Part shown: positions 11,071 through 41,152 of the stretch, piece after piece
Position numbering within the stretch: the first letter of the stretch is position 1
Layout of the letters: each line of letters opens with the position of its first letter
Made by a program: the position numbers and the translations under genes
From: Deltaproteobacteria bacterium
GTDB lineage: Bacteria > Myxococcota_A > UBA9160 > SMWR01
DNA: 46,375 nt
Direction: 5' to 3'
NCBI GenBank assembly: GCA_024638705.1
Contig: JAHEJV010000004.1
Span: forward strand, 1 to 46,375
Notes under the pieces: model-generated
What the model was told of the DNA's origin: nothing
The model's database searches: none
Seen by the model: only the letters and a program-made list of their open reading frames with translations

Positions 11071-11094
11071 CTTCCCGCACAACATCATTTCCAC

Positions 11095-11988: not shown

Positions 11989-11996
11989 CCCGCTGC

Positions 11997-18490: not shown

Positions 18491-19855
18491 TCACGTCGCT
18501 CCCGCGACGGTCATCTTCGACACCCGGACACTCGGCGATCCGATCCGCGAGAGCCAGAGCAGGTCGCTGCCGACGGCGTCGATGTTCGCCAGCATGTCGC
18601 CGAAGTTCGCGGCGATCGTGACTTCCTCGACGGGGTGGGTGAGTGCCCCGTTCTCGATCCACAGGCCCGCGGCGCCGCGCGAATAGTCGCCCGTGGTCGG
18701 GTTGAAGCCCATCCCGATCAGCTCGGTGACGAGCAGGCCCTTCGGCGTGTCCGCGATGATCTCTTCGAGGGTCGCGTCGCCCGGCTCGAGGCCGAGGTTC
18801 GTCGCGCCGACGCCGGGCGCGCTGCCCGCCGAGCGCGACGCGTTGCCCGTCGAGGCCAGTCCGAGCTTGCGCGCCGAGTAGGTGTCGAGCAGGAACGACG
18901 CGAGCTTCCCGCGATCGAGGACGGTATTGCGTCGGCTCGGCAGGCCCTCGCCGTCGAAGGGGCGACTGCCGAGGCCGCTCGGGCGCAGGGCGTCGTCGAC
19001 GAGGGTGATGCGATCGCTCGCGACGCGCTCGCCCAGCTTCTCGGCGAGGAAGCTCGTCCCGCGATACACCGCATAGCCACTGACCAGGCCCGCGACCTGG
19101 CGCCACAGGCTCGCCGCCGTCAGCGGATCGAAGATCACCGGCACTTCGCAGGTGGCGATCTTGCGCGCGCCGAGGCGGCGCACGGCGCGCTCGGCGGCGC
19201 GTCGGCCGACGTCTTCGGGCGCTTCGAGATCGGCGAGGCGCCGCGCGGACGTCATCCAGTAGTCGCGCTGCATGCTGCCGTTCTCGCGCGCGAGCGGCTC
19301 GGCGAACAGGCCGTGCGAGCCCGATTCGTACTCGCCGAGGAATCCCTCCGTGTTGCCGTAGACGACGCGCGCGAAGCCCGAAGATGCCTGGGAGCCCTCG
19401 GAGTTGGTGATGCGCGGGTCGGTCTCGCGGGCGGCCTTCTCGGCGCGCTTCGCGGCCTCGATGCGCGCGTCGACTCCGCTCGCGCGATCGCCCGCGTCGA
19501 TGAGATCGAGCTCGGGGAGCGCGTCGGCCGGGGCGAACCCGCCTTCGGGGAGGCCTGCTGACGGGTCTTCCGCGGTCGCGCGCGAGAGCGCCACGGCGTC
19601 CTGCGCCATCGCGCGGATCGCGTCCTCGCCGAGGTCGCAGGTGGAGGTGATCGCCGAACGCATGCCCGCGCTGCCGCGGGTGAGCGCCCGGATCCCGAGC
19701 GTGCGTCCGCGCGCCTGCTTCACGAAGTCGATCTCTTCCCCGCGCACGCGCGTCTCGAGGGAATCCGATTCCACGACGACGACGTCGGCGGCGTCGGCGC
19801 CGGCCGCGGCCACGGCTTCGAGGGCGAGCGCAGCGTGTTCGCGAACCGTGCTCAT
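18491..19855 (-). CDS. pmbA: PmbA/TldE protein
   Basis: SRPFDGEG, TGDYSRGAAGLWIENG, EVTIAANF; no HExxxH; adjacent to tldD. Confidence 0.92.
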   Translation of the reverse strand: MSTVREHAALALEAVAAAGADAADVVVVESDSLETRVRGEEIDFVKQARGRTLGIRALTRGSAGMRSAITSTCDLGEDAIRAMAQDAVALSRATAEDPSAGLPEGGFAPADALPELDLIDAGDRASGVDARIEAAKRAEKAARETDPRITNSEGSQASSGFARVVYGNTEGFLGEYESGSHGLFAEPLARENGSMQRDYWMTSARRLADLEAPEDVGRRAAERAVRRLGARKIATCEVPVIFDPLTAASLWRQVAGLVSGYAVYRGTSFLAEKLGERVASDRITLVDDALRPSGLGSRPFDGEGLPSRRNTVLDRGKLASFLLDTYSARKLGLASTGNASRSAGSAPGVGATNLGLEPGDATLEEIIADTPKGLLVTELIGMGFNPTTGDYSRGAAGLWIENGALTHPVEEVTIAANFGDMLANIDAVGSDLLWLSRIGSPSVRVSKMTVAGAT

Positions 19856-22955: not shown

Positions 22956-23828
22956 CTATCTCACCACGGGCCGGGTGGGAGTGCCGGCCACCTCGATGCG
23001 GATCTGGCCGAAGTTCCCCACCTCGACGCCCTGGGCGTTGAGCGAACCCTGGATCGCGCCGCTCACCGTGAGCTCGAGCTGGAGCCGGAGCGGCGCCGTG
23101 GCGAAGTTCGGCGCGCGTCCGATCGTGCCTCGCGCGCGACCCGTCGCGAGCGGCGATTCGAGGGAGAAGCTGCGGATCCGCGCCCAGTCTTCGCCGCCGA
23201 GGTCGATCTCGCCGTCGATCTTCTGGAAGGGCATCGGCAGCGGCAGCTCGGGATGGGTGAGGATGCCGTCGCGCGCCTGGAAGGTGACGGTGCCCGAGGG
23301 TCCCTCCGGCAGGACCACGACGTCGATGTCGGCGTCGGTGCGTCCCTTCACGTGGAGCGGGGTGCCGAGCGCCTTCTGGGGAAGCACCTCGAGGTCGGCG
23401 TTGGTGAGGTCGCCGTCGTAGGCGGGAGTCTCACCCAGGGTGAGGACGCCCGAGGCGTCGCCGCGCGCGGAGAGGATGTCGAGTGCCAGCGCCGGATCGC
23501 CGCTGAACCAGGAGAGCGAGAGCGCCGGTCGGACGCCCGCTTCGGCGAGGTCGAAGCGCGTGCCGTCGGGCTGGATGATCTGGACGCCCTCGGCCTCGAT
23601 GCCGGGCGCCCAGCGCACGAAGCCGAGCGAGACGGGGCCGAGGATGATGCGCGTTCCGGTGTCCTGCTCGATCTGGGTCGCAATCCGCTGGGCGAGGCGG
23701 TCGTAGGGGAAGTCGAGCACCATGAAGAAGAGCGTCAGCGCGATGGCGGCCAGCGCGACGCCCGTGATGCGCAGGCCGCCGAGAGCGCCCTCGGCGCGCG
23801 AGGTGGCATCGGCTTCGACTCGCTCCAT
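22956..23828 (-). CDS. gspN: Type II secretion protein N
   Basis: TM followed by FPYDRL, ends GTPTRP; last gene of the gsp cluster. Confidence 0.8.
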   Translation of the reverse strand: MERVEADATSRAEGALGGLRITGVALAAIALTLFFMVLDFPYDRLAQRIATQIEQDTGTRIILGPVSLGFVRWAPGIEAEGVQIIQPDGTRFDLAEAGVRPALSLSWFSGDPALALDILSARGDASGVLTLGETPAYDGDLTNADLEVLPQKALGTPLHVKGRTDADIDVVVLPEGPSGTVTFQARDGILTHPELPLPMPFQKIDGEIDLGGEDWARIRSFSLESPLATGRARGTIGRAPNFATAPLRLQLELTVSGAIQGSLNAQGVEVGNFGQIRIEVAGTPTRPVVR

Positions 23829-23830
23829 CG

Positions 23831-24379
23831 CTAGATCGGCTCGAAGGACGAGACGGTGAACGTCACGTCGAGAAACTCGGGTTGGTCGGGGCGCGTGCGC
23901 ATGCGCAGGCTCTTCACGCTGAGTGCCTGGGGCGAGATGTCGATCTGGTGCAGGTATTTCACGGTCTGCGCGAGCGTCACGTTCTTGAGCCCGACCTCGA
24001 CCTTCGTCTCGCGATAGTTCGGATGCGAGGGCGACGCCTGCGGCTCCATCGACTCCACCAGGACTTGCGCCTGGCGCGCCAGCGTCTCCAGGGTGGTGCG
24101 CAGGTTGCCGCGCGAGCCGCGCTGGATGCGCTGCTCGACGTCGGCGAGGCGACCCTGGATCTCGTCGTACTCGCGGCGCATGCGCTGCATCGCGGCGAGC
24201 TGCTGGTCGGCGGAGGCGAGCCGCAGCTCCCCCGAGCCGGCGGCGTTGAGGATCGGGTTGACGATCAGAAGGTAGACGAGCGCGACCGCCGTCATTCCGC
24301 CCGCGACGGTGACGAGCCAGCGCTCGCGCGCTTCCAGCCCGTTGAACCCGTCGAGCAGGCGGTTCCAGAGCTCTTTCAC
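23831..24379 (-). CDS. gspM: Type II secretion protein M
   Basis: LEARER followed by TM, coiled coil and a ferredoxin-like end. GTG 24379 in a GTGA overlap. Confidence 0.85.
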   Translation of the reverse strand: MKELWNRLLDGFNGLEARERWLVTVAGGMTAVALVYLLIVNPILNAAGSGELRLASADQQLAAMQRMRREYDEIQGRLADVEQRIQRGSRGNLRTTLETLARQAQVLVESMEPQASPSHPNYRETKVEVGLKNVTLAQTVKYLHQIDISPQALSVKSLRMRTRPDQPEFLDVTFTVSSFEPI

Positions 24380-25929
24380 GAGTCGTTCTCCGGGTTGGCG
24401 AGACTGATCGTGACGTTGAACTTCTTGCCGCCGGTGCGGTTGTCGGTCTCGATCGCGCCGATGCGCGCCTGATCGAAGGGGGCGAACTTCGACAGCTCGG
24501 CGCCGAGCCGGTCGGACGACTCGAAGGTCCTCGCGTAGACGCGCAGCCGGACGGTCTGTTTGTCGATCGAGAGCTCCTCGAAGCCGACGTCGAGGTCCTT
24601 CGGGACGCGCTTCGAGATCTCGGTCAGGACGTCGAGTGCGGACATGTTTCCGCGGTAGACCCCGAGGAACTCGGCGCGCGCTTCGGCGTCCTGCACGGCG
24701 TCGCGCATGGCGGCGAGCGGGTCGTCGGGCACTTCCTGTCCGGGGAAGGCGCCCTGATAGAGGGCGGTGATCTGCTCTTCGACGCGGCTCGCCTCGCGCG
24801 ACTCGAGCACCGCGCCGGTCGAGAAGCTCACCAGCGCGAGTCCGGCGACGACGGCAGCGAGGATGCCGGTGGGCCCGAACTCGCGGCGTACGCGAGAGAG
24901 GTCGGCGCGGCGGGCGAAATCGTCCTGGCGCAGGTTGAGACGCGTCGTGCCGCGGCCTGAGCCGCGCATCGCCAGGGCGAGGGTCGGGGCGAGCTGACCG
25001 AGGCCGGCTTCGGCCAGGTCGAGCCCGGCTTCGTCGCGCGGCGTGCCGAGGCCTTTGCACGCCAGGCCCGTGCGTTCGCAGAGCCAGGTGTCGAGGTGCT
25101 CGAGCTCGGCGCCGCCTCCGATCAGGGTCACGTTGGCGATGCCGTCCGGGCAGAGCGGTTCGAGGGCCGTCGCGAAGCGGACGATCTCGGACGCGAGTCG
25201 GTCGACGACCTCCGCCGCGCGCGGGAAGGGTGCGCCGACACCCGGCTCGGCGACGCCGCGGGCGTGTTTGTCGGCCTCGGCGTCCTCGAGGGAGAGCGCG
25301 CGCTCGGCGGCGACGGCTTCGGTGAAAGCGCGTCCCGCGGTGCCGAGGGATCGCGCCGAGATCGCCTTCCCCTCGGCGAGGGCGCAGAGCGTCGTCTTCT
25401 CGTGGCCGATGTCGACGACCAGGCGGTTGCCGGGCCAGTCGAAGGCGTGGGAGAGATTTGCGAGCACGAGGCCTTCGCATTCGATCGTGCGCGCGTCGCA
25501 GTCGGCCTCGTGGAGCGTGCCGATCAGCTGGGAGACCTCGCTGCGCGGGGCGAGCGCGGCGATGACGTCGGCGCGTCCCGACTCGCGGTGGGCGAGCTCC
25601 CAGTCGAGGACCATCTCGTCGAGGTCGTAGGGCACCTGGTCTTCGATCTCGAAGGGAACCGCCTGGGCGAGCCGGCGTTTCTCGGTGAAGGGAAACGTCA
25701 GCCGCCGCACGGACACGCGATTGCCGCGCACCGCGGTGACGACGTGGTCGCGTTGGAAGGAGTGGATCCGCAGCATCCGCGAAACCTGGTCGGGCAGAGG
25801 CAGTCTGGCGTCGCGCGGCTCGGCGTGGACGCGCACGACCTTGAAGGTGCGCAGGCCCTGCTCGACCTCCACCGCCTTCAACGTGTGGCTGCCGAGGTCG
25901 AGCCCCAGGACGTTCTTCAGGATCGCCAC
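24376..25929 (-). CDS. gspL: Type II secretion protein L (PilM-like actin-fold domain plus PilN-like periplasmic part)
   Basis: LGLDLGS, VDIGHEKT, LIGGGA, LNLRQ followed by TM; located between gspK and gspM. Confidence 0.85.
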   Translation of the reverse strand: MAILKNVLGLDLGSHTLKAVEVEQGLRTFKVVRVHAEPRDARLPLPDQVSRMLRIHSFQRDHVVTAVRGNRVSVRRLTFPFTEKRRLAQAVPFEIEDQVPYDLDEMVLDWELAHRESGRADVIAALAPRSEVSQLIGTLHEADCDARTIECEGLVLANLSHAFDWPGNRLVVDIGHEKTTLCALAEGKAISARSLGTAGRAFTEAVAAERALSLEDAEADKHARGVAEPGVGAPFPRAAEVVDRLASEIVRFATALEPLCPDGIANVTLIGGGAELEHLDTWLCERTGLACKGLGTPRDEAGLDLAEAGLGQLAPTLALAMRGSGRGTTRLNLRQDDFARRADLSRVRREFGPTGILAAVVAGLALVSFSTGAVLESREASRVEEQITALYQGAFPGQEVPDDPLAAMRDAVQDAEARAEFLGVYRGNMSALDVLTEISKRVPKDLDVGFEELSIDKQTVRLRVYARTFESSDRLGAELSKFAPFDQARIGAIETDNRTGGKKFNVTISLANPENDS

Positions 25930-25939
25930 GAGGCCCCTC

Positions 25940-26989
25940 TCACAACGCGCGCCAGGATAGCAGCCGGGGGTCCGACCCATCCCCGCGGTCGACGACCGCC
26001 TCGATGCGCCGGGCCACGTCGCCGACCCGGCCCGTGGCCGTGATCACGAAGACGTCGCTCTTGTAGTCGGGCTCGGGAAAGATGGCGTTGGTCACGATCT
26101 CTCGTATCGGCGTGCAGCCCTCCGCACTTTGCTCTTCCGCGCAGACCAGGCCCCCGTCCTCGCGGGCGATCAGGAGCCGCCGCACGGTGTCCTCGTCCGC
26201 CAGCCGCAGCTCGACCTCGTCGTCGAAGAAGAGCAGCCCGAGGACCCAGGGCGGCGCGGTGTTGGGGTTGATGCCGCCGCCCCCGACGTAGGGGTAGACG
26301 GTGACGTAGGGCGCGAGCGCCGCCACGAGATGGCCGTCGAAGCCCTCCACGCGTCGCAGCTCGTCCACCGAGAGGACCGGGCGGTTGGCGGGCCGACCCG
26401 GAGGGTCGCGTCGCTGGTAGTCTTCGTCCTCGGGGCCGCCCTGTTGCTTCTCGCTGTCCTCGTCGACGTAGTCGATCAGGTTCGACGCGAGTTCGGTGGC
26501 GTCGTAGGTCTTCTCGCCGGGTGGCAGCGGGATCTCGGCCACGGCCTTCTCGATCAGGCGCTGGAGGAGGTCGGCGCCCTTCGGCTCGATCGCGCCGGTC
26601 TCGTCGAAGAACATCACGGCGTTGAGATTCAGCTTCGACGCGACGTCCTCGATCGACACCGCGAGGGACGAGCCGTCCGCGAAGACGATCGGCTGGCCGC
26701 TGACCTGCGCCCAGAGCTCTTCGCGGTGATCGAGCGCGAGCTGCGTCTGGCGCTCGCGGTACTCGTCTTCGAGCAGGAGTGCGGTCGCCAGGCGGACGCC
26801 GCCGCGTGCCAGGGCATCGGCCCGCGATCGCGAGTCGCGGTTCTGCACGATCATGTGATCGATCAGCGCGCGACTCTGGAAGGTGGCGATCGTGCTCGCC
26901 AGGAGCAGGGCGAAGAAGAGCACCACGACGAGGACGACCCCGCGCTCGCGGCGCCGAGCTTCCGACGAAGCCATCATCGAACGGCGCAT
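25940..26989 (-). CDS. gspK: Type II secretion minor pseudopilin K
   Basis: RGVVLVVVL (no E5), KLNLN, DYVDED, ELRRVEGF, INPNTAP. Confidence 0.9.
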   Translation of the reverse strand: MRRSMMASSEARRRERGVVLVVVLFFALLLASTIATFQSRALIDHMIVQNRDSRSRADALARGGVRLATALLLEDEYRERQTQLALDHREELWAQVSGQPIVFADGSSLAVSIEDVASKLNLNAVMFFDETGAIEPKGADLLQRLIEKAVAEIPLPPGEKTYDATELASNLIDYVDEDSEKQQGGPEDEDYQRRDPPGRPANRPVLSVDELRRVEGFDGHLVAALAPYVTVYPYVGGGGINPNTAPPWVLGLLFFDDEVELRLADEDTVRRLLIAREDGGLVCAEEQSAEGCTPIREIVTNAIFPEPDYKSDVFVITATGRVGDVARRIEAVVDRGDGSDPRLLSWRAL

Positions 26990-27945
26990 CACAGACACTC
27001 CGGATTCACGGCCGGGTGGCCGGCGAGGATGTCCGCGTAGGGGGCGAACAGCGCGTCGGGGTTCTGTGCGAGCGCCGACAGCGTGCTGATGTCGGTGGGC
27101 GAGAGGCCCGCCGCCGCGGCGTCCGCCGCGCTCACCTTCGAGAAATCGACGCAGTCGGCGAGGGTGAGGTCACCGAAGTCGCCCTCGTCGCCCTCGCCGT
27201 CGGCGAATCCGTCCTCGCCGTCGGGATCGAGCAGCGCCTCGAGATCGATCGGGCGCAGCGGCAAGGGCACGTGGCGTGCATAACGTCGCGGCAGTGGATC
27301 GAAGCCGTCGTCGTCCATCTCCTCGTTCGGGTCGCGCAACCCGACCTCGATCTCGACGGCGAGCGGAAGCTCTCCCGAGTCGGCGAGCTGGGACGAGTCC
27401 CACTCCTCCTGCCACTCGCCGGCTGCGTCGAGGAAGCGCAGGGTGAAGGAATCGATCTCCTCGGAGACGACGAAGGCGTTCGGGTCGTCCGGGAGGGGAA
27501 GACTGCGATCGAGGCCGTCGGGCAGCTCGGGACGCGACCAACGGCGGAGTGCGAACCCTTCGCCGTCCTCGGCGCGGTCGAGGGTGTAGGCGACGACGGC
27601 GAGATCGGACGCGGGGCCGTCGCTGCCGCGCGGGCGCTCGCGGCGTACGAACTTGAGCTGGTCGGCGCCGCCCTGGTTGAAGCGCGATTCGCCGACGAAG
27701 AGCCAGGGGTGCCCGAGCGGATCGGCTTCGGACGGCTTGCGCACGAGCAGGGTGTGCTCGAGATCGGCGGCGATGCGATCGAGCAGGGTCGCCGCGCGTC
27801 GCACCTCGCGCGTGGATTCGGTGGCGCGCGTCGCCTGGTTCGAGAGGTCGATGTAGAAGTTGGCCGCGGCGCCGAGCAGGAAGCCCGTGATCAGCATGAC
27901 GCCGAGTACCTCGATCAAGCTGAAGCCGCGCTGCAAGCGCCTCAT
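26989..27945 (-). CDS. gspJ: Type II secretion minor pseudopilin J
   Basis: Prepilin motif RGFSLIEVL, WQEEWDS, LPLAVEI. Confidence 0.85.
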   Translation of the reverse strand: MRRLQRGFSLIEVLGVMLITGFLLGAAANFYIDLSNQATRATESTREVRRAATLLDRIAADLEHTLLVRKPSEADPLGHPWLFVGESRFNQGGADQLKFVRRERPRGSDGPASDLAVVAYTLDRAEDGEGFALRRWSRPELPDGLDRSLPLPDDPNAFVVSEEIDSFTLRFLDAAGEWQEEWDSSQLADSGELPLAVEIEVGLRDPNEEMDDDGFDPLPRRYARHVPLPLRPIDLEALLDPDGEDGFADGEGDEGDFGDLTLADCVDFSKVSAADAAAAGLSPTDISTLSALAQNPDALFAPYADILAGHPAVNPECL

Positions 27946-28538
27946 CGGCTGCCCTCGGTCTGGCGAAGGAGCTGCTCGAGCTCGAAGGCCTGCTCTTCGG
28001 CCGACGCCTCCTCGCCCTCTTCGCCTTCTTCGCCGCCCTCGGGCTCGGCTTCGGTGGGGAAGAGCTCGGCGAGCTCGCTGGTGTCGAGCGCGAAGGTCGT
28101 GCGCTCGACGCGCGCGGGCTCGCCCGCTTCGTCCCATCCGACGACGACGCTGATCCGCTGCACGCGACTCTGTCCGCGGTCGTCGACGAGCATCGTCTCG
28201 AGGGGCTCCGTGTCGTCGCGCCGGATCTCGTCGCGCAGCGCGCCCGGCAGCATCGCCATCACGTCTTCGGGCTGCACCTCGATCGCGATGATGTAGGGGG
28301 CCGACTCCTTCTCGGTGACGCCGTTCTCGAGCGGCTCGATCTGGATCAGGCTCTCGAGCAGCGCGAGCTCGCGGTCGGCGATCAGCGCGGCTTCGGCCTT
28401 CCTGCGGTCGAGCCCCTCGGAGCGGAGTCCGACGAGGGCGACGCGCGCGAGCATCGTGAAGACGAGGCCGAAGATCAGCACCGCCGCGAGCACTTCGATC
28501 AGCGTGAAGCCCCGTCGGTTGTGCCGACTAACTGCCAT
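27942..28538 (-). CDS. gspI: Type II secretion minor pseudopilin I
   Basis: Prepilin motif RGFTLIEVL; position between gspH and gspJ. Confidence 0.8.
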   Translation of the reverse strand: MAVSRHNRRGFTLIEVLAAVLIFGLVFTMLARVALVGLRSEGLDRRKAEAALIADRELALLESLIQIEPLENGVTEKESAPYIIAIEVQPEDVMAMLPGALRDEIRRDDTEPLETMLVDDRGQSRVQRISVVVGWDEAGEPARVERTTFALDTSELAELFPTEAEPEGGEEGEEGEEASAEEQAFELEQLLRQTEGSR

Positions 28539-29094
28539 CGCGGACGCGGACGCGCTCGTCCAGCGGATGGACGTCGAGCGCAATGCGATTTCCCGCCGGA
28601 TCCTCGAGGTAGATCTCGGTGTAGTTCGCGCTGCCGTCGCGCTCGAAGTCGACGCTCGCCTCGCCGCGCGAGATCCAGCCGCCGGGTGTTTCGAGGCCCT
28701 CGAAGAAGAACGGGTGCTTGACGATCTGAAGCTTTCCGAAGTTGCCCGGGATCGGCCGGTAGGCGATCTCGGCGGCGCGCGGCGCTTCGAGCGAGAGCGG
28801 CGAGTTGCCGCGCAGGTCGGGATCGGCGAGACCGGGGTCGACGGCGTCGGGATCGGATTGCAGCCACTCAAGCCGGAACTCGGCCTCGTCGAGCTCCATC
28901 CACATGCGGTGCGGGATTCCGGTGACGATCGCGCGTTGACGCGCGAGCTCGAGCTGACCGGCGATCTGCTCGGCCTCCGCGCGCAGGGCGCGCACCTGGA
29001 CGCCGGCGAGGTTCGGGATCACGAAGGACGCGACCAGGGCGAGAATCGCCGCGACGGCGAGGATCTCGATGAGGGTGAAGCCCTGCTTCCGCAT
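28528..29094 (-). CDS. gspH: Type II secretion minor pseudopilin H
   Basis: QGFTLIEIL, LELARQRAI; follows gspG. Confidence 0.82.
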   Translation of the reverse strand: MRKQGFTLIEILAVAAILALVASFVIPNLAGVQVRALRAEAEQIAGQLELARQRAIVTGIPHRMWMELDEAEFRLEWLQSDPDAVDPGLADPDLRGNSPLSLEAPRAAEIAYRPIPGNFGKLQIVKHPFFFEGLETPGGWISRGEASVDFERDGSANYTEIYLEDPAGNRIALDVHPLDERVRVRDGS

Positions 29095-29118
29095 CCGGAT
29101 GGCGCGCCGCGCGGCGAG

Positions 29119-29589
29119 CTAGCTGTCCAGGGCGTCGTCTTCCGCCCAGTTTCCGAAGTCGGCGTCGACGCCTTCGCCGCCCGGCGACCCGTCGGCGCCG
29201 AAGGACCACAGGTCGTATGCGCCGCGGTTGTGTTGTCCGGGCGACTCGTACTGATAGGGGTTGCCCCAGGGATCTTCCGGGATATGGCGCTCGCGCAGGT
29301 AGCTCTGCTGGCTGCGCGCCTCGGGCGGGGGCGAGATCAGCGCGCGCAGGCCCTGCTCGGTGGTGGGGAAGCGCGAGTTGTCCATGCGGTAGGTCTCGAG
29401 CGCACCGTCGAGCATCTTGATCTGGGTCTTCGCGGTGCTGACGCGCGCCTGCTCGATGCGCGGGATGATCGCGACACCGACGAGCGTGCTGAGCAGGCCG
29501 ATGATCAGCACGACCGCCATGATCTCGATGAGCGTGAACCCGTCTTCGCGGACGAGGAGCCGAGAGGCCTTCTGATTCTTCTCTCGCAT
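29119..29589 (-). CDS. gspG: Type II secretion major pseudopilin G
   Basis: GFTLIEIMAVV, FPTTEQGLRAL, DPWGNPYQY, SFGADG..GGEG. Confidence 0.95.
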   Translation of the reverse strand: MREKNQKASRLLVREDGFTLIEIMAVVLIIGLLSTLVGVAIIPRIEQARVSTAKTQIKMLDGALETYRMDNSRFPTTEQGLRALISPPPEARSQQSYLRERHIPEDPWGNPYQYESPGQHNRGAYDLWSFGADGSPGGEGVDADFGNWAEDDALDS

Positions 29590-29606
29590 CTTCTTCTCCT
29601 TCGGAA

Positions 29607-30842
29607 CTAGCCGAGCGAGGTCGTGACCTGCAGCAGGGGCACGAGCGTCGCCAGGATGATGACCAGGACGATCCCGACCATCACGAGGATCAGGACCGGT
29701 TCGAGCAGGGCGGTGAAGCGGCTGACCGTCGTCTCGACCTGCTCTTCGTAGGTGTCGGACACCTTCGTGAGCATCGATTCGAGCTCGCCACTCTGTTCGC
29801 CGACCTCGATCATGTGGGTGACCATCGGGGGAAACTCCCCGCTCGCCTTGAGCGGGGCTGCCACGCTCGCACCTTCGGTGATGCTGGTGCGGGCCGCCGC
29901 GATGGCTTCGGCGATCACCGTGTTGCCGGCAACCTGCCCGGCCGTTTCGAGCGCCCGGGTAATCGGCAGACCTCCCGAGAGTAGCGTGGAGAGAGTGCGC
30001 GCGAAGCGCGAGATCGCGATCGTGCGGACGAGCCGTCCGACCAGAGGAAGCCGCAGACGCACGCGGTCGTAGGTGGCGCGGCCGCGCTCGGTGCGGATCA
30101 CCATCCGGAACGCGGTGACGAAGGCGACGCCCACGAGGATGACCGCCCACCAGAAGTCGCGCATGAAGTTGGAGAGCGAGATGATCCAGCGCGTGTAGAA
30201 GGGCAGCTCCTGGTTGAGACTCGCGAGCAGCTCGGTGATCTGCGGCAGCACGACGGTGACCAGGGCGCCGACCACGACGCAAGCGAACAGGAACATCACC
30301 GTCGGGTAGATGAGGATCGAGCTGACCTTGTTGCGCAGCCGGACCTGGCTCTCGAGGTAGTCGGCGAGCCGGTCGAGGACGGTTTCGAGCGCGCCGCCGG
30401 CCTCGCCCGCGCGGACCATGCCGACATAGAGGTCGGGAAAGATCCCGCCGCCGGCGGCCATCGCGTCGGCGAGCGCCGAGCCTTCGTTCACGCGGTCGCG
30501 CACCTGGCCGAGCACGTTCTTGAGGCGCGCGTTCTCCACCTGATCGGTGAGGGCGCGTAGGGCGGACACGAGGGGGATGCCTGCGCCGACGAGCGTCGCG
30601 AGCTGTCGCGTCATCAGCGCGAGATCGAGCGGCGAGACGCGTTGGAATGTCGGAAGGGACACCGAGAAGCGGCTCGCTCCCGGCGCCGCGGCAACGGCGT
30701 CGCGCCGGCCCTCCTCGAGCTCGGTGAGGAACACGCCGTCGCGACGCAGGCGTGCGCGCGCTGCGCGGGAGCTCTCGGCGTCGAGATGGCCGCGGGTCTT
30801 CTTCCCCGCTTTCGTGACGCCCTTGTACGCGTAGACCGGCAC
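29607..30842 (-). CDS. gspF: Type II secretion inner-membrane platform protein F
   Basis: TRQLATLVGAGIPL, AGEAGGAL, VGEQSGEL, LLEP. Confidence 0.95.
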   Translation of the reverse strand: MPVYAYKGVTKAGKKTRGHLDAESSRAARARLRRDGVFLTELEEGRRDAVAAAPGASRFSVSLPTFQRVSPLDLALMTRQLATLVGAGIPLVSALRALTDQVENARLKNVLGQVRDRVNEGSALADAMAAGGGIFPDLYVGMVRAGEAGGALETVLDRLADYLESQVRLRNKVSSILIYPTVMFLFACVVVGALVTVVLPQITELLASLNQELPFYTRWIISLSNFMRDFWWAVILVGVAFVTAFRMVIRTERGRATYDRVRLRLPLVGRLVRTIAISRFARTLSTLLSGGLPITRALETAGQVAGNTVIAEAIAAARTSITEGASVAAPLKASGEFPPMVTHMIEVGEQSGELESMLTKVSDTYEEQVETTVSRFTALLEPVLILVMVGIVLVIILATLVPLLQVTTSLG

Positions 30843-30851: not shown

Positions 30852-32615
30852 TTAGATCTGGGCGACCGCGCCCTGTTCTTCGGTGGCGCGCAGCACCTCG
30901 GCGACTGATGTCTTCCCGGCGAGCACCTTGCGCGCTCCGTCGGAGCGCAGCGGGTGCATGCCTGCGCGGATGGCCGCGCTCTTGATCGTCTTCGAGTCGA
31001 TGTTCTGGCTGACCAGCGAGCGCACGTCGTCGTCGATCTGCATCAGCTCGAAGATGCCGAGCCGACCGCGATAGCCGGCGTAGTTGCAGCCCGCGCAACC
31101 CTCGGGCCGGTAGAGGCGCACCGGGCGACCCGGTGCACGGATGCCGAGCTCGGCGAGCTCTTCGTCGGTGGCCTCGTACGGCGTCTTGCAATCGGGGCAG
31201 AGCACGCGCACGAGGCGCTGAGCGAGCACCGCGACCAACGACGAGCCGACCAGGAAGGGCTCGACGCCCATGTCGACCAGACGCGTGATCGCGCTCGGCG
31301 CGTCGTTGGTGTGGAGCGTCGAGAACACGAGGTGGCCGGTGAGCGATGCCTGAATCGCGATCTCGGCGGTCTCGAGGTCGCGGATCTCGCCCACGAGGAT
31401 CACGTTCGGGTCCTGGCGCAGGATCGACCGCAGCCCGCTCGCGAAGGTGAGGCCTACTTTCGAATTGACCTCGATCTGGCCGATGCCGGCGAGCTGGATC
31501 TCGACCGGGTCCTCGATCGTGATGATGTTCTTGTCCGTGGCATTGATGCGAGACAGCGCGCCGTAGAGCGTCGTCGTCTTGCCGGAGCCGGTCGGTCCGG
31601 TGACGAGCACGATGCCGTTGGGCCGCGTGATCAGCTTCTGCATCGTTGCGAGCTGCTGTTCGTCGAAGCCGAGCGTGGTGAGGTCGAGGAGTTCCTGCGT
31701 GCGCGGCAGCAGGCGCATCACGACGCGCTCGCCGTAGGCGACGGGCAGGGTGGACAGACGCACGTCGTAGTCGCGGCCGGCGATCTTCAGGCGGATGCGA
31801 CCATCCTGGGGCAGCCGCTTCTCGGCGATGTTCAGGTGCCCCATGATCTTGATGCGTGAGACGATGCTCGCCTGGAGGGCCTTCGGCAGCGGCTTGATCG
31901 GCTCGTAGAGCACGTTGTCGATGCGGAAGCGCACGCGCAGCTCGTTCTCGAACGGCTCGAGGTGGAGGTCGCTGGCGCGCTCCTTCACCGCGTTGTGCAG
32001 GAGCGAGTTGACGAGCTTGATGATCGGGGCGTCGTCCTCGCCCGACTCGAGCAGGTCCTGCGGCTCGGAGCTGATCTCGCTCGCGAGCATCGAGAGGTCT
32101 TCGGCGGCGTCCTCGGCGAGGGCGTCGGTGGAGCCCGGGCCGCGGTCGTAGGCCTCGTTGATCGCGCCGAGGATCGTGCGCTGGGTGGCGAGCTCGATCA
32201 CGATGTCCGCGCCGTCGAAGAGCAGGCGCAGGTCGTCGAGCGGGCCCGTGTCGAGCGGATCGGTGACGGCGACGCGGATGGCGCCGCCGGCTTCCCGTGA
32301 CAGCGGCAGGACGCCGTGGTCCTTTGCGAAGGCGATCGGCAGCTGTTCGATCAGGCTCTCATCGACGTCGCCGTGGTGGATCTGGGCGCGGACGGGGAGG
32401 CCGAGCTGCTCGGAGAGCGCGCCGAGCAGCTGGTCGGCGGAAACGAAGCCGCGCGAGACGAGAGCGTCGGACAGGCGTCCGCCGGACTCGCGGTGGGCCT
32501 CGTGGGCGATCTCGAGCTGCTCCTCGGTGAGCGACGTGGTCCGCAGCAGGATCTCGCCGAGGTCCCGCGGTGCGGGCGGCCGATGGGCTGCGACCGGATC
32601 GACGTGTGTGCTCAT
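30852..32615 (-). CDS. gspE: Type II secretion ATPase E with N-terminal MshEN-like domain
   Basis: Walker A GPTGSGKTT, LRQDPNVILVGEIRD, TGHLVFSTLHTND, CxxC...CxxC. ATG 32615 with a G-rich RBS. Confidence 0.95.
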   Translation of the reverse strand: MSTHVDPVAAHRPPAPRDLGEILLRTTSLTEEQLEIAHEAHRESGGRLSDALVSRGFVSADQLLGALSEQLGLPVRAQIHHGDVDESLIEQLPIAFAKDHGVLPLSREAGGAIRVAVTDPLDTGPLDDLRLLFDGADIVIELATQRTILGAINEAYDRGPGSTDALAEDAAEDLSMLASEISSEPQDLLESGEDDAPIIKLVNSLLHNAVKERASDLHLEPFENELRVRFRIDNVLYEPIKPLPKALQASIVSRIKIMGHLNIAEKRLPQDGRIRLKIAGRDYDVRLSTLPVAYGERVVMRLLPRTQELLDLTTLGFDEQQLATMQKLITRPNGIVLVTGPTGSGKTTTLYGALSRINATDKNIITIEDPVEIQLAGIGQIEVNSKVGLTFASGLRSILRQDPNVILVGEIRDLETAEIAIQASLTGHLVFSTLHTNDAPSAITRLVDMGVEPFLVGSSLVAVLAQRLVRVLCPDCKTPYEATDEELAELGIRAPGRPVRLYRPEGCAGCNYAGYRGRLGIFELMQIDDDVRSLVSQNIDSKTIKSAAIRAGMHPLRSDGARKVLAGKTSVAEVLRATEEQGAVAQI

Positions 32616-32643
32616 GTGTTCCCCCCGTTTCCCGACGCCGCGA

Positions 32644-35139
32644 TCACTCGCTTTCCTCACCTTCGAGGACCAGGATCGACGGCGCCAGGCCGTGCGAACG
32701 CTGCACCGCCTCGCCGACGGCGTTCGCGTGGTCGAGGGTTTCGTAGGGCCCGAGATGGATCTCGTAGATCACGCTGTCGCCGACCCGGGCGGAGACGAGC
32801 GTGCCGTCGTGGCCGGAGTCGATCAGGTCGGTCAGCAGGCTCGCGGCCGCGTCGGGGTCGCCGAGGATCGCGGCCTGGAGGACGTAGCGATCGGCGGCGG
32901 CCCTGGCGCCGGCCTCGGCGGCGCGCTGGGCTTCGGTGATCGCGCGGATCTCGCTCATCCGCTCGTTCGGATAGCGCGCACGATGGGCGGCGACACGCTC
33001 GCGGATCGGCTTGCCGTGGTGTTCTGGCGTGTAGGGCAGGCCCTGTTCCTCGGCGAGGGCGAGACGCTGGGCCTCGACCTCGAGATCGCGCTCGGAGAGC
33101 TCGAGCGCGCGACCCGAACGCTCGCGGAACTCCTCGCGGCGGCGGATCGTATCGCCCTCGAGGTCGATCGGCGTGCGCACGATGCGCGGCGTCAGGAACA
33201 CCAGCAGGTTGGTCTTGCGCGTGCTCGTCGACGTCGACTTGAAGAGCCAGCCGAAGAACGGGATGTCGCCGAGCCACGGGACCTTCGTCTCGCTATCGGT
33301 TACCTGGTCCGATAGCAGGCCGCCGATGACGACCGTCTCGCCGTCCTGCACGACGACCGTGTTCTCGACGCGGCGGTTCGAGAGCGCGACGCCGACGTCC
33401 TCCTGGTTGCCGACGCCTTCCTGGAGGCTGCTGTTGATCGCGGTGATCTCCTGGAAGATCTCGAGGCGCAGGCTGTTGCCCTCGGTGATCTGCGGGGTCA
33501 CGCGCAACGTCACGCCGATGTCCTGGCGTTCGACGTTCACCGACGACGAGAGCCCGGTCTCCTGGCCCGCCGCCGATTCGACACGGCTGCTGATGATCGG
33601 GATGTTGTCGCCGACGCGGATCTCGGCCTCTTCGTTGTCGCTGGTGAGGATGTGCGGCGCCGACACGATGTTGATGTCGCCGTTGCTCGCCGACAGGTCG
33701 ATGATCGAGTTGATGATCGAGCCGCTGCCGACGCGGTTGCCCGATGCGTCGAGGTCGCGCGTGTCGCGGAACACCTGACCGAGGAGCGGCACCGACGCGC
33801 TCGTCAGGGGCACACCCGTCGCCGCCGTGGCCGCCGAGGTGGCGGACGCGACGAGCAGGTTCGTGTCGCCGTTGATCGCGCCGAGCAGGCCCGTGATCCC
33901 GATGTTCTCGGCGTCGTTGACCGTGAGCTCCATGATCAGCGCTTCGACGGACACCTGCGGGCGCTCGACGTCGAGCTTCTCGATCACCTGCGCGAGGGTG
34001 TTGAAGCCCTCCTGGCTCGCCTGGATGATCAGCGAGTTCGTCGCCGGGTCGGCGCTGACGCTGATGCCGCCCGCCAGTCCGGTGACGGCGCTGCGGATCG
34101 CCGGCGTCGCCTGGGCGGCCGCGGCGCCGCCTGCCGCCGTGGTCACCGACGAGCTCCGCCCGCCTCCGATCAGGCCCGACAGCGTGTCGGCGAGCTCTTC
34201 GGCATTCGCGTTGTTCAGGTAGTAGACGTGGATGCGGCCGCCGCCCTGGACGGGGATGTCGAGCTTCGCGACGAGCCGGCGCACTTCTCCGAGCTGGGCG
34301 CGCGGAGCGAGCACCAGCAACGAGTTGGTGCGCTCGTCGGTGAGGATGCGGACGGGCGGCTTGTTCGCAGCCGCCGGGGTTTCCGTGTTGGCCCCGGAGC
34401 GCCGCCGCGTCGAGCGCCGCGTCGTGCGCGTCGTCTCGGTCACCTGTGCGCCGTAGATCTCCGACACCTGCTCCGCGAGCGTAGTGGCGTCGGCGTACTC
34501 GATGTTGATGACGGCGAGCTCTTCCTTGTAGGTCTCGACGTCGATCGACTCGAGGATCGCGATCAACCGACGGATGTTCGAGGCGGACTCGGTGAGGATG
34601 ACCGTGTTGGTCGGGGCGTAGGCCGCCATCGCCGCGTCCTTCGAAACCAGCGGCTTGAGCGTGTTGACGATCGAGTCGGCGTCGATGTAGTTGAGCGGAA
34701 TCAGGCGGGTGACGAAGCGGTCGCGATTCGGCGGACGGCGTGAGCTGATCACCGTCTCGATGCTCGACTCCTTCGCCTCGCGCACCGGCACCACCTTGAT
34801 GGCGCCGCCCGGAGTCGTGACCGTCGTGAAGCCCTTCACCTGGAGCACCGACTCGAACACGGCGTAGGCCTGTTCGATCGGGATCGGTTCGGGGGAGACG
34901 ATCGTCACGCGGCCTCGCACGCGGTCGTCGTAGATGAAGTTCCGGTTCGTGGCGCGCGCGATCGTCTCGATCACCTGGGCGAGCTCGGCGTCCTGGAAAT
35001 CGAGCGTGACCATCGTCGTTTCGTCGTAGTCCGCCTGCTGTGCGGCGGCGGGGACGGCGAGTCCGACAGCGAACGCGAGGACCGCGGCGAACGCGAGTGT
35101 GCGCGGCGCCCGGAGGTGCGAGATGGAAGTGGTGATCAC
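32644..35139 (-). CDS. gspD: Type II secretion secretin D with C-terminal SPOR-like domain
   Basis: N0-N3 domains (DERTNSL, DPATNSL), secretin core, KVPWLGDIPFFGWLF, LLVFLTPRIV, then an extra ~180 aa. Confidence 0.93.
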   Translation of the reverse strand: MITTSISHLRAPRTLAFAAVLAFAVGLAVPAAAQQADYDETTMVTLDFQDAELAQVIETIARATNRNFIYDDRVRGRVTIVSPEPIPIEQAYAVFESVLQVKGFTTVTTPGGAIKVVPVREAKESSIETVISSRRPPNRDRFVTRLIPLNYIDADSIVNTLKPLVSKDAAMAAYAPTNTVILTESASNIRRLIAILESIDVETYKEELAVINIEYADATTLAEQVSEIYGAQVTETTRTTRRSTRRRSGANTETPAAANKPPVRILTDERTNSLLVLAPRAQLGEVRRLVAKLDIPVQGGGRIHVYYLNNANAEELADTLSGLIGGGRSSSVTTAAGGAAAAQATPAIRSAVTGLAGGISVSADPATNSLIIQASQEGFNTLAQVIEKLDVERPQVSVEALIMELTVNDAENIGITGLLGAINGDTNLLVASATSAATAATGVPLTSASVPLLGQVFRDTRDLDASGNRVGSGSIINSIIDLSASNGDINIVSAPHILTSDNEEAEIRVGDNIPIISSRVESAAGQETGLSSSVNVERQDIGVTLRVTPQITEGNSLRLEIFQEITAINSSLQEGVGNQEDVGVALSNRRVENTVVVQDGETVVIGGLLSDQVTDSETKVPWLGDIPFFGWLFKSTSTSTRKTNLLVFLTPRIVRTPIDLEGDTIRRREEFRERSGRALELSERDLEVEAQRLALAEEQGLPYTPEHHGKPIRERVAAHRARYPNERMSEIRAITEAQRAAEAGARAAADRYVLQAAILGDPDAAASLLTDLIDSGHDGTLVSARVGDSVIYEIHLGPYETLDHANAVGEAVQRSHGLAPSILVLEGEESE

Positions 35140-35157: not shown

Positions 35158-36054
35158 TCAGTCCCTCGGTACGAAGGTGCGTTGGGTTTGCGCGCCACTG
35201 GCGTCCAGGATCGTGAGGTCGAACTGATCGGCTTCGGCGAACTCCTGGAAGATCTTCACGCTCTGGTCGGGCGAGTCGATCGAGATCCCGTTGAACTCGG
35301 TGATCACGTCGCCGTCGTTCAGCCCGATTTCCTCGAAGAGGCTGCCGGACTTGATGGAGTTCACCTGCAAGCCGACCATTTCGCCGCCTTCGAACTTCGG
35401 CAGCACGCGCGCCTGCGACAGCAGGTTGCTCGGATTGCGCAGCGTGTCCTCGAGATCGCGCCGCGACACGTCGAAGGCGCCGCTCTCGTTGCGCGACACG
35501 CGGGGGGTCCGATCGCGCGACGCGCGCTGCCTCGGAGTCCGCGCCTTGCGGCGGACCGAGGGCTTGCTCGACGAGCCTTCCTCGTCGAGGGTCAGTTCGC
35601 GCGGCGCGCCGTTCTCGGTGAGCACGACGCGGCGTCGCTCGATGCGCGTGACGAGCGCCTTCCCCTTGATCTGGTCGCCGACCGCGACGACGAGCGTCTC
35701 GTTCTTCTCGCGATCCTGGAGCGTCGCGCGGGAGCGGTCGGGATCGGACGCGGCGAAGGTGCCGAGCAGCTTCACCGGGAGCTTCGACTTCTCGAGGTCT
35801 TCCTCTTCCTGCGTGGCTTCGGCGACGGCCGTCGCGCTTCTCGTGCTCGAGTTGAAGAGGTTGCGCTGGAGGATGACCTGGCGCTCGGACCAGGTGCGCT
35901 GCCGCGTCGGCGGGGCCGTCGTCACGACGGCGGTCGCCGCCGGCGACGGAGCCAACACCGTTGCGGCGATCACCTCGTTGACCGTGTCGGCCGCGAGGAA
36001 ACAGCCCAGCGCGAACAAGAGCACGTTCGCGGTCCAGGTCATCACAGAACCCAT
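35158..36054 (-). CDS. gspC: Type II secretion protein C with PDZ domain
   Basis: TM, RNLF, KLLGT, IERRRVVL, PDZ motif IGLNDGDVITEFNG. Confidence 0.9.
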   Translation of the reverse strand: MGSVMTWTANVLLFALGCFLAADTVNEVIAATVLAPSPAATAVVTTAPPTRQRTWSERQVILQRNLFNSSTRSATAVAEATQEEEDLEKSKLPVKLLGTFAASDPDRSRATLQDREKNETLVVAVGDQIKGKALVTRIERRRVVLTENGAPRELTLDEEGSSSKPSVRRKARTPRQRASRDRTPRVSRNESGAFDVSRRDLEDTLRNPSNLLSQARVLPKFEGGEMVGLQVNSIKSGSLFEEIGLNDGDVITEFNGISIDSPDQSVKIFQEFAEADQFDLTILDASGAQTQRTFVPRD

Positions 36055-36378
36055 ACTCGTGGCTCGTTCGCTCCCGTGCAGGAACAGCCAAGGCGATGCT
36101 GCCGCGCACCAGGGCCGGCCAGGATTCGGCCAGTATACCCAGGCGTTCCTGCGTTGCTCAAGAGATTCCCCGTGAATACAAGGAGTTAGGACACCGATCC
36201 CCGTATCGGCTGCACGCTCCCGCGCCCTTACTGACCCAGATCACCGAATCGGCGTTCCGCGATCCACGACATTTCCCCTGGGAAATCGGCGCAGGCGGTT
36301 GACAGGGAGGGCCTCCGGCCGAGGTTTGGCCCCATCGCGTCGCCAGCGACGGAGCGTGGCGACCCAGGAGAGGATTTC

Positions 36379-38289
<1,911 letters not shown>

Positions 38290-38311
38290 GGCGCAGGACG
38301 GCGGGGGGACG

Positions 38312-38719
38312 GTGAGCGTCCGGAGCCCGAAACGGGGCGACCCGAGCCCGAGCGGACGGCACTTCGGCGAGTTCTCCGAGCGACTCCTCGGCGACCACTG
38401 GCAGCCGGACGTCGACGTCTTCGAGACCGCGGAGGCGTTCGTCGTCCGCGCCGAGCTGGCAGGCGTCCGTCGCGGTGAGCTGCGCGTCACGGTCGACGGC
38501 GACCGGCTGCGGATCCGCGGCATGCGCGACGGCGAGGGCCAGCGCGCGGTCCGCCTCCACCAGATGGAGATCGCGACGGGTCCTTTCGAGCGCAGTCTGC
38601 GCATCCCCGAGGACGTCGACCGCGACCGCGTCACCGCGCATCTCGAGGACGGCCTCCTCACCGTCACGCTCGCAAAACGCTCGACGGGACACCGCAGCGT
38701 CCCCGTCGAGCGGCAGTAA
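38312..38719 (+). CDS. Hsp20/alpha-crystallin small heat-shock protein
   Basis: PDVDVFET, AELAGV, GPFERSL, A.LEDGLLTVTL. Confidence 0.88.
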   Translation: MSVRSPKRGDPSPSGRHFGEFSERLLGDHWQPDVDVFETAEAFVVRAELAGVRRGELRVTVDGDRLRIRGMRDGEGQRAVRLHQMEIATGPFERSLRIPEDVDRDRVTAHLEDGLLTVTLAKRSTGHRSVPVERQ

Positions 38720-38731
38720 GGAAAGAGCGCC

Positions 38732-41152
38732 TTGAGCGACGAAGAACGAGACCAGACCCGCGAGACCAGCGGGGGCGGCGGCACCGAGATCGCGGTGGAG
38801 AGCGGTGGCGGAGAAGAGAGCTCCGTCGTCGAGCTCCCCGGCGTGCTGCCGATCCTCCCGCTCAAGAACACGGTGCTCTTCCCGCATCTGCTGTCGCCGC
38901 TGCTCGTGAACACCGACCGCTCGCGGAAGTTGATCGACGAGGTGTTGCGCAGCCCCGACCGCCTGCTCTTGAGCGTGGCCGTGCGCGGTCCCGTCGAAGC
39001 GAGCCCCGGGCCCGACGACGTCTACCGGGTCGGCACGGTGATGCGCATCGCGAAGATGCTGAAGTTCCCGGACGACTCGTATCGCCTGCTGGTGCAGGGC
39101 GTCGCCCGCGCGCGGGTGGAGACCGTCGTCGGCGAGGATCCGTTCATGACCGGGCGCGTGTCGCGTCTCGACGACGCGGGCGATCTCGACTCCGTCGAGC
39201 TGACCGCGATGGCGCGCAATCTCGCCCAGGAGTTCATCGCCCTCGTCGGCGCGAGCCCGCGTCTCTCCGACGAGCTCCAGGTGCTCGCCCAGGGCGTCGA
39301 CGATCCCTCGAAGCTCGCCGACCTCGTCGCATCGCATCTCGACGTCGACGTGTCCGGGAAGCAGGAGCTGCTCGAGGAGGTCGACGTGCGTCAGCGCCTC
39401 GAGCGGGTGCTCGCCGAGGTGTCGCGCGAGAAGGACGCCCACAAGGTCGAGAGCGAGATCCGCGAGAAGGTGCAGACCGACATCGGCCGCACCCAGCGCG
39501 ACTACATGCTGCGCCAGCAGCTCGAAGCGATCCGTCAGGAGCTCGGCGAGCGCGAGGACTCGGAGACGGAGATCGAGCGCCTGCGGGAGAAGATCGAGTC
39601 GGCCGGCATGCCGGAAGAGGCGCACGATCAGGCGAAGCGCGAGCTCGACCGGCTTGCCCAGATGCCCGCCGCGGCCGCCGAGCATGGAGTGATCCGCACC
39701 TACATCGAGTGGATGGTCGACCTTCCGTGGCAGAAGTCGAGCGAGGACCGCCTCGATCCCGAGGAGGCGCGACGCATCCTCGACGAGGACCACTACGGCC
39801 TCGAGAAGGTGAAGGACCGCATCGTCGAGTACATCGCCGTGCTCTCGCTGAAGCGCGATCTGCGCGGCCCGATCCTGTGTTTCGTCGGGCCTCCCGGCAC
39901 GGGGAAGACGTCGCTCGGCCGCTCGATCGCGCGCGCCCTGGGGCGCGAATTCGAGCGCGTCTCGCTAGGCGGCGTGCGCGACGAGGCGGAGATCCGCGGA
40001 CATCGCCGCACCTACGTCGGCGCGCTCCCGGGACGCATCATCCAGAATCTCCGCCGCGCCGGGACGCGCAACCCGGTGTTCGTACTCGACGAGGTCGACA
40101 AGGTCGGCACCGACTACCGCGGCGACCCGTCGTCGGCGCTGCTCGAAGTGCTCGACCCGGAACAGAACGGCACGTTCAGCGATCACTATCTCGAAGTGCC
40201 CTTCGATCTCTCGAACATCCTGTTCATCGCCACCGCGAACCTGATGGATCCGGTGCCGCCGGCGCTGCGCGACCGCATGGAGGTGATCGAGCTGCCCGGC
40301 TACACCGCCGAGGAGAAGCTCGAGATCGCCAAGCGCTTCCTGGTGCCGCGGCAGCTCGCGGCGAACGGCGTCGCCGACGCTGGCGTCGATCTCCCCGACG
40401 ACACGCTGCGTCGGGTCATCGCGAGCTACACGCGCGAGGCGGGCGTCCGGAACCTCGAGCGCGAGATCGGCGCGATCGCACGCAAGCTGGCCCGCCGCAT
40501 CGCCGAGGGCGAAGACGGGAAATCGCTACGCGTGGCGCCCGACGACCTCGCCGAGCTGCTCGGGCCGGTGAAGTACGAGCCCGAGGTGGCCGAGCGCGCT
40601 GGAATCCCCGGCGTGGCGGTGGGCCTCGCCTGGACCCCGGCCGGCGGCGACATCCTCTTCGTCGAGTCCACGCGGATGCCGGGGAAGGGCGAGCTGAAGC
40701 TCACCGGCTCGCTCGGCGACGTGATGCGCGAATCGGCGGAAGCGGCTCGCTCCTGGCTGCGCGGGCGCGCCGAGGACTACGGCCTCGACCCCGACGCGTT
40801 CCGGAACTCCGACATCCATCTACACGTTCCCGCCGGCGCCGTCCCGAAGGACGGCCCCTCGGCGGGGATCGCGATGGTGACGTCGCTCGCTTCGCTGATG
40901 ACCGGGCGGTCCGGCCATCCCGACGTCGCGATGACCGGGGAGATCACGTTGCGCGGACGCGTGCTACCGGTCGGGGGCATCAAGGAAAAGGTGTTGGCCG
41001 CGAAGCGCGCGGGAGTCGCCCGCGTGGTGCTGCCCGAGCGCAATCGCAAGGATGTCGAAGAAGTCGAGGTGGAGCTCCTCGAGGGGCTCGACCTGCAATA
41101 CGTGGGAACCATCGATGAAGCTCTGGAGCACACCCTGCAGCCTGCCCATTGA
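38732..41152 (+). CDS. lon: ATP-dependent Lon protease
   Basis: LON N-domain, [21 protein letters not shown] (catalytic Ser), GGIKEK (catalytic Lys). Confidence 0.97.

Follow-up and report, generated by a model that had tools for sequence, protein, structure and literature searches.

Why does the secretin of a type II secretion system (T2SS) end in a SPOR domain, which as a rule holds on to the wall where the cell divides, and does this domain still bind the wall? The question is raised by gspD in a contig of a Deltaproteobacteria bacterium (GCA_024638705.1, JAHEJV010000004.1, positions 1 to 46,375); the window means this whole stretch of 46,375 nucleotides. The genome belongs to a class that we take to be UBA9160 of GTDB. 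A sequence-only reading of the window had proposed that the domain binds peptidoglycan and anchors the secretion channel at the septum or pole by a self-contained mechanism. The GspD-SPOR fusion is real and lineage-defining. The pocket for denuded glycan is, as judged from aligned residues, degraded in this GspD and in its sampled class relatives.

The SPOR domain and the arm that carries it

The gspD gene is a single open frame, and its product scores 548.9 bits against TIGR02517 (cut-off 351.35), which identifies it as a T2SS secretin; the top Foldseek matches of the protein are GspD/PulD structures. Pfam finds an N0 domain (residues 46-116), three Secretin_N domains, a Secretin domain (484-655) and a SPOR domain (PF05036, 749-822). 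The SPOR match, at window positions 32674-32895, scores 23.1 bits within the full-length protein and 26.7 bits by itself against a cut-off of 21, and the scores of relatives reach 57 bits. A hidden Markov model built only from SPOR domains outside the class gives the GspD domain 27.9 bits, and the best of 1000 shuffled sequences (847 gave a score) reaches 7.2 bits. The AlphaFold model of the tail (residues 649-831, 90 sequences; mean predicted local distance difference test score, pLDDT, 93.3; predicted template modelling score, pTM, 0.62) has four helices followed by the beta-alpha-beta-beta-alpha-beta order of the ribonucleoprotein-like SPOR fold. Its top Foldseek matches are SPOR domains (1x60; 6i05, root-mean-square deviation, rmsd, 1.5 A). 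VIA-align superposes it on the RlpA SPOR domain 6i0n with Z 11.2 and an rmsd of 1.6 A over 75 residues; the first small folds without a SPOR label appear at Z 7.5 or below, apart from 6ozd, an exported protein of unchecked family, at Z 10.3. A chance match or a misjoined reading frame was rejected, since the domain lies in one open frame, is conserved in 90 loci and scores far above the shuffles. Both the profile score and the predicted fold therefore confirm the SPOR-like C terminus noticed earlier, and the linker of about 95 residues described after the motif LTPRIV measures 96 residues to the SPOR domain (655-750).

The GspD tail was matched in 200 of 225 class genomes, in 116 of the 118 good genomes and in all 13 families. 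A sample of 401 genomes of the phylum contains the whole tail in 73 of 78 class members; one more is cut by a contig end and four have weak matches only. The whole tail was not found in the 323 sampled genomes outside the class, where the listed matches (best E 1.4e-11) are to the SPOR part or lie in short frames. Long-frame matches outside the class were rejected as hidden fusions because all three that were inspected are DedD-like proteins. A single lead came from the ESM Atlas, with SPOR at 96% and Secretin at 44%; its value of 0.85 is below the reliable range. Two genomes of the smaller order of the class (G014 and G015; L134, L135, L136) each match the full tail twice, and both G014 copies and the one G015 copy that was checked are full GspD-SPOR genes.

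The modelled arm between barrel and SPOR domain has helices at residues 657-679, 683-698/699, 711-722 and 726-748. When the protein is aligned by sequence and by profile to solved GspD, EpsD, ExeD and PulD, the alignments run beyond the barrel into the first S-domain helix, and those that reach helix 657-679 are to 6i1y, 5wq8, 6i1x, 5wq7 and 6hcg. It had been suggested that the SPOR domain stands where the S-domain normally ends the protein. This was rejected because the alignments pair helix 657-679 with the first S-domain helix; the SPOR domain is instead appended after an S-domain-like helical segment. None of the 30 best-scoring secretin loci from 50 genomes outside the class has a SPOR domain. 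By eye, a helical segment of this kind precedes a low-complexity tail in 29 of these, and the remaining one stops after 57 residues, so the SPOR domain was added to an ordinary Myxococcota-type tail.

Conservation in the class was assessed on 90 tails, one per genome, taken from the 200 matches as the 30 best and 60 chosen to span the families. The arm is strongly conserved at R668 (90/90), Y723 (89/90) and P724 (89/90), and the spacing from barrel to SPOR domain is 85-108 residues, with a median of 104. The SPOR domain itself has 40% identity across 82 rows, compared with 17-22% for the variable parts of the linker. Mean-field covariation (175 sequences, effective number 136) gave a few plausible pairs inside the SPOR domain and weak pairs that join residues 741-743 to it. 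No pair that links the SPOR domain to other parts of the protein stands clearly above noise, and the top pair involves a hub position, I568.

According to PMC6532946, an Ala-Phe motif in S-domain helix 12 is a pilotin signature, and the pilotin-independent ExeD also retains an S-domain. There is no Ala-Phe motif in GspD residues 655-750. The genome, which is 90% complete, gave no match to the PulS/OutS (PF09691) and AspS (PF16549) pilotins, although a pilotin of unknown type is possible. Annotation of the gspC-N cluster agrees with the earlier observation that it holds no pilotin or gspAB gene. The protein contains no Cys in its translation, hence no lipobox, and is not a liposecretin of the HxcQ type.

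The denuded-glycan pocket

The lactyl carboxylate that amidases set free is bound in RlpA by Q270 together with a patch of arginines (R302, R309 and R311), and loss of all three arginines is "very detrimental" to the binding of denuded glycans (PMC6895207). The pocket residues of GspD were mapped by alignment to RlpA 6i05 and judged from their places in the sequence rather than from an electrostatic surface. The three arginines correspond to G787, E793 and H795, so there is no basic patch at the RlpA sites. Since Gly, Glu and His replace the arginine pocket, the domain is likely no longer a septum-targeting one.

The class tails were compared with two sets of SPOR domains. The DedD-like control consists of the 30 best Pfam-scoring SPOR domains of the class and is biased towards the canonical motif; the Binatia-type set, named after most of its members, consists of 87 domains in 86 secretins (P0329 included) retrieved with a canonical query. 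A Gln together with Arg or Lys at the R309 site occurs in 0/90 class domains, 30/30 DedD-like controls and 86/87 of the Binatia-type set. The R309 and R311 sites are both basic in 0/90, 30/30 and 82/87, respectively. At 17 positions that lie on the sheet face or next to it, there are more basic than acidic residues in 7/90 class domains against 27/30 and 86/87, and the mean net charge is -6.7 in the class, +1.8 in the DedD-like control and +3.6 in the Binatia-type set. The peptidoglycan binding and septal or polar targeting proposed from the sequence are therefore doubtful for this lineage.

The manner of loss differs within the class. The smaller order (13 rows) keeps the Gln in 12/13, and neither of its two Arg sites is ever basic, with aromatic or aliphatic residues at the R309 site; the larger order has Glu at this site in 65/77. 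The position of Q755 is variable and may be Q, L, R, V or others. The same genomes provide a canonical comparison: the contrast between the pockets of the secretin SPOR and the DedD-like SPOR was seen in 15/15 pairs from the 15 genomes with both domains, at a mean identity across those genomes of 43% for the secretin SPOR and 52% for the DedD-like SPOR. Because the DedD-like domains keep the pocket in all of these pairs, proteome-wide acidity was rejected as the cause of the acidic secretin SPOR.

The class SPOR domains also have a one-residue insertion at the turn between helix 1 and strand 2 relative to the control SPORs. Near this turn, D774 is found in 78/90 and G779 in 84/90 class domains. 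The whole L-x-D-x-G-Y-D-G motif was rejected as novel since its G-Y-D part is generic to SPOR domains.

Related fusions, history and gene surroundings

A SPOR profile search gave 7916 matches, of which the best 150 (149 new identifiers) were classified. They include fragments and complete proteins of the class, proteins with several SPOR domains, and P0143, which is the end of a secretin and carries two canonical SPOR domains. The 118 longer relatives of P0143 (P0215-P0332; several named Candidatus Binatia) are GspDs. In this Binatia type, a C-terminal SPOR domain is present in 86/119 proteins (P0329 included) and absent in 33/119, with a patchy distribution among close relatives. Where present, it is canonical and basic and sits on a long disordered Pro/Ala/Glu-rich tether. 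The wall-anchor mechanism proposed for the present GspD fits these proteins better.

A secretin tree (77 rows, quick IQ-TREE, LG+G4, PilQ outgroup) groups the class GspDs with P0329 (Shimodaira-Hasegawa-like approximate likelihood ratio test, SH-aLRT, 97) and next with those GspDs of the phylum that have no SPOR domain (92), while the Binatia type stands elsewhere. A single origin of all SPOR-tailed secretins was rejected, as placing them in one clade gave p-AU 0.0014 in the approximately unbiased test; this compared 33 SPOR-bearing rows with 37 others, which were picked after the tree had been seen, and left seven rows free. There is a second fusion (the Binatia type) and an INTERMEDIATE, namely P0329, P0338 ("Deltaproteobacteria bacterium") and P0339. 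In these three proteins the first arm helices are homologous to those of the class type; a disordered tether comes next, and then a SPOR domain that is canonical and basic and keeps Q, F, R and R. A further GspD-like secretin of the genome, its third (L005:2-1195 (+), G000:C244), is very divergent, with a long branch and 30% best identity; it has a 22-residue tail without SPOR, and the gene is cut by the contig start.

The three tethered proteins are possibly the ancestral state. In the likely history, an ordinary glycan-binding SPOR domain would first have been fused on a floppy tether, as in P0329, P0338 and P0339; a short helix would then have replaced the tether while both arginines were lost, as in the smaller order; and Glu793 and Asp774 would finally have been fixed, as in the larger order. 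The secretin-fused domains thus suggest a series from canonical to neutralised to charge-reversed pockets. A tree of SPOR domains only (56 rows, 77 columns) separates four groups and does not recover the origin of the class domain; since it shows no descent, the canonical ancestor rests on the secretin tree and the linker homology. Alternatively, two separate SPOR fusions may have occurred onto sister secretins.

The gspD gene sits within a gspC-D-E-F-G-H-I-J-K-L-M-N cluster (Table 1). Elsewhere, the genome encodes an ExeA/GspA protein with PG_binding_1 and an exeA-like/gspB-like gene pair, so the self-contained system that had been proposed is not supported. The gspB-like protein is membrane-anchored and Pro/Ala-rich, and it matches T2SSB weakly, at 17.3 bits against a cut-off of 28.4. 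There are five ExeA-like ATPase matches in this genome. Of 81 class genomes, 79 have an ExeA-like match, and at least 30 have one over the full length. GspB-like matches occur in 25/41 class genomes, and by comparison of coordinates 23/25 adjoin an exeA-like gene. The domain content suggests that the ExeA/GspB-like proteins may serve this T2SS. Denuded glycan is probably made in this bacterium, since its genome also encodes two Amidase_3 proteins and a DedD-like protein with a canonical SPOR domain. The examined part of its PilQ (L004:1-1995 +) matches AMIN only weakly, at 17.2 bits against a cut-off of 20.5.

Table 1. Positions of GspD features, cluster genes and distant wall-engagement genes
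Feature	Position	Strand	Evidence
gspD, T2SS secretin, 831 aa, Sec signal-like N terminus	32644..35139	-	TIGR02517, Pfam
Secretin beta-barrel domain, residues 484-655	33175..33690	-	PF00263, E 4e-51
Helix 657-679, homologous to first S-domain helix of solved GspD/PulD/ExeD	33103..33171	-	alignments to solved structures
Rest of helical arm, residues 680-750, conserved Y723-P724	32890..33102	-	AlphaFold model, conservation, spacing
SPOR-fold domain, residues 749-825, acidic, glycan pocket degraded	32665..32895	-	Pfam, AlphaFold, Foldseek, alignments
Class-specific surface D774 ... G779-T780, helix 1 / strand 2 turn	32800..32820	-	conservation, alignment
Q755 = RlpA Q270; Gln in 41/90 class domains vs 30/30 controls	32875..32877	-	alignment
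E793 = RlpA R309 site; Glu 65/90, basic 2/90	32761..32763	-	alignment
H795 = RlpA R311 site; basic 37/90	32755..32757	-	alignment
gspC (HR + PDZ)	35158..36054	-	PF11356, PF17820
gspE ATPase; open-frame limits, true start probably slightly downstream	30852..32660	-	PF00437, PF05157
gspF	29607..30842	-	PF00482
Pseudopilins gspG, H, I, J, K	25940..29595	-	PF08334, PF07963, PF21687
gspL (PilM-like cytoplasmic part), gspM, gspN	22956..25980	-	PF11104, PF05134, PF04612; TIGR04411 above cut-off
ExeA/GspA with AAA_22 + PG_binding_1	L129:198-1883, G000:C439	+	Pfam
exeA-like gene (no PG domain), then gspB-like gene	L130, G000:C306		domain matches

The window contains several other genes of interest. GspL (24376-25980, -) joins a PilM/FtsA-like cytoplasmic part to a PilN/GspL-like periplasmic part. 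Directly downstream of gspN, a TldD/PmbA pair (18491-21288, -) follows a HAD hydrolase gene and one for an ArsR-methyltransferase. The gene at 13645-15282 (+) encodes a probable lipoprotein with Cys-rich repeats and, by eye, Ig-like and nidogen-like stretches, which is possibly T2SS cargo; its neighbour at 15358-16668 encodes a secreted-looking protein to which no family was assigned. A polysaccharide cluster (638-13478) holds glycosyltransferases, a flippase, an O-antigen-ligase-like gene, two sulfotransferases and a priming sugar transferase, together with an open reading frame that is Wza-like by eye (11221-11988) and an outer-membrane-like one. The Pfam NAD-GH match at 36241-38913 (-; E 8e-174) is antisense to dnaK (36379-38289, +) and is most likely a shadow-frame artefact.

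Possible functions and known systems

The degraded pocket and the conserved surface are consistent with a repurposed domain that has lost glycan binding and forms a protein-contact collar on the secretin instead of a division-site anchor, and the chance of this is a little short of even. The S-like helices would lie across neighbouring subunits as in solved secretins. If the channel is a 15-mer, as taken from solved GspDs, about 15 SPOR copies would form a ring at the periplasmic face of the barrel, where the last arm helix may hold them outside the barrel near the position of a pilotin belt. The conserved non-canonical surface (D774, G779-T780, E793) could contact the arm of the secretin itself or another envelope protein. 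This contact may help assembly or stability when no recognisable pilotin is present, and the ExeA/GspB-like proteins would handle passage through the wall. The fixed spacing of 85-108 residues favours a collar when compared with the Pro/Ala/Glu-rich tethers of the Binatia type. The broader claim, that a class-wide SPOR family gave up denuded-peptidoglycan binding to become a covalent pilotin-like belt, with living intermediates that record the switch, is tentative and somewhat doubtful.

Several observations weigh against a collar that no longer binds glycan. Most RlpA-glycan contacts are made by the main chain, and the basic-patch residues vary between SPOR domains (PMC6895207), so the fold alone may bind glycan weakly; 15 copies add avidity to such weak binding. 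Some pocket features persist in part of the class: the F274 site, which is Leu in this GspD, is aromatic in 70/90 domains, the L307 site is hydrophobic in 79/90, the R311 site is basic in 37/90 and the Gln is kept in 41/90. The G-Y-D of the conserved turn is generic, with the Asp present in 75/87 of the Binatia-type set. Both controls were chosen by likeness to canonical SPOR domains and so lean to the canonical motif, and the 90 class tails are related and not independent. The SPOR domain may be mobile on its arm because the pTM of the tail is only 0.62. SPOR-less GspDs of the phylum share the S-like segment, so a collar is not generally required.

Some of these points speak for residual wall binding, in which 15 weak sites using main-chain contacts anchor the secretin or bias it to septa and new poles. 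The fold matches that of RlpA to within 1.6 A, this GspD keeps Q755, the aromatic and basic residues just described persist in many relatives, denuded glycan is probably made, given the two amidase genes and the canonical DedD-like SPOR protein, and secretin-SPOR fusions recur in LspD and the Binatia type. However, none of the three Arg sites of this GspD is basic and the central one holds Glu, binding by the triple mutant of RlpA is very poor (PMC6895207), no class domain keeps both R309 and R311, a net charge of about -7 would face a polyanionic ligand, and the ExeA/GspB-like genes could do the anchoring. Residual wall binding is therefore unlikely, though it deserves serious weight. The charge reversal fixed at the central site of the larger order and the retained aromatic and hydrophobic neighbours of E793 would also suit a changed specificity, in which the sheet face binds a neutral or positive glycan, such as de-N-acetylated strands or exopolysaccharide passing the secretin, and E793 reads an amine. 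PMC12475490 links Myxococcus GspD to slime secretion, and a polysaccharide cluster lies in the window. The smaller order has aromatic or aliphatic residues in place of this Glu, however, and the RlpA SPOR domain does not tolerate N-deacetylated glycan (PMC6895207), which makes such a change quite improbable. The free variation at Q755 and the related GspDs that work without a SPOR domain might mean that the domain is only a vestige, a former wall anchor kept as a folded cap. This is the most improbable of the explanations, given that the domain is retained in nearly all good genomes across 13 families, with D774, G779 and the spacing held.

As a fusion, the protein is of a recurrent kind and a modest finding; what is new, surprising and testable is its degraded pocket. 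A domain that simply binds the wall would mirror Legionella LspD and be only modestly interesting. The preprint bioRxiv 10.1101/2022.07.01.498525 states that all characterised SPOR domains bind denuded glycans and that roles beyond septal targeting are unknown. The family offers a natural test, with a canonical control in the same genome and three secretin-fused states that differ mainly in the pocket, and it cautions against annotating every secretin with a SPOR domain as a wall anchor. It also bears on the assembly of Myxococcota secretins that have no known pilotin; GspD is essential in Myxococcus xanthus, according to PMC12475490. In the literature searched, which left most subscription papers outside its scope, there was no description of a C-terminal SPOR-secretin fusion, of a SPOR domain repurposed from denuded-peptidoglycan binding to a pilotin-like belt, or of a Binatia-type GspD with a canonical C-terminal SPOR domain, which is represented by database sequences only.

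The sequence-only reading overlooked a published precedent. Legionella pneumophila LspD is, like the GspD described here, a T2SS secretin fused to a SPOR domain, and PMC6617341, PMC9239104 and bioRxiv 10.1101/525063 give it no known pilotin. LspD, compared by description only, carries its SPOR domain N-terminally, whereas the present one is C-terminal, follows an S-like arm and has a degraded pocket; Legionella also lacks the ExeA/GspB-like genes that this genome has. The Binatia-type GspDs have the same order of N0-N3, secretin, tail and SPOR domain but differ in secretin clade, in the disordered tether, in the intact pocket and in the frequent absence of the SPOR domain from close relatives. 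With the SPOR domains of RlpA, FtsN, DedD, DamX and CwlC, the GspD domain shares the fold, a Pfam score above cut-off and, in this protein, the Gln, but it has no basic patch and carries the one-residue insertion. GspA/GspB (ExeAB), the AMIN domains of PilQ and TsaP solve the wall-engagement problem that had been assigned to the SPOR domain, and the first of these solutions probably has its counterpart in this genome. The S-domain and pilotin systems (PulD-PulS, GspD-AspS and the pilotin-independent ExeD) share a homologous first S-domain helix with this GspD, which, unlike PulD-PulS and GspD-AspS, has neither the Ala-Phe motif nor a matching pilotin gene in its genome. The Deinococcus GspP belt, as described in PMC10828601, is a precedent for a ring outside the barrel; unlike pilotin belts, the proposed SPOR belt would be covalent and not lipid-anchored.

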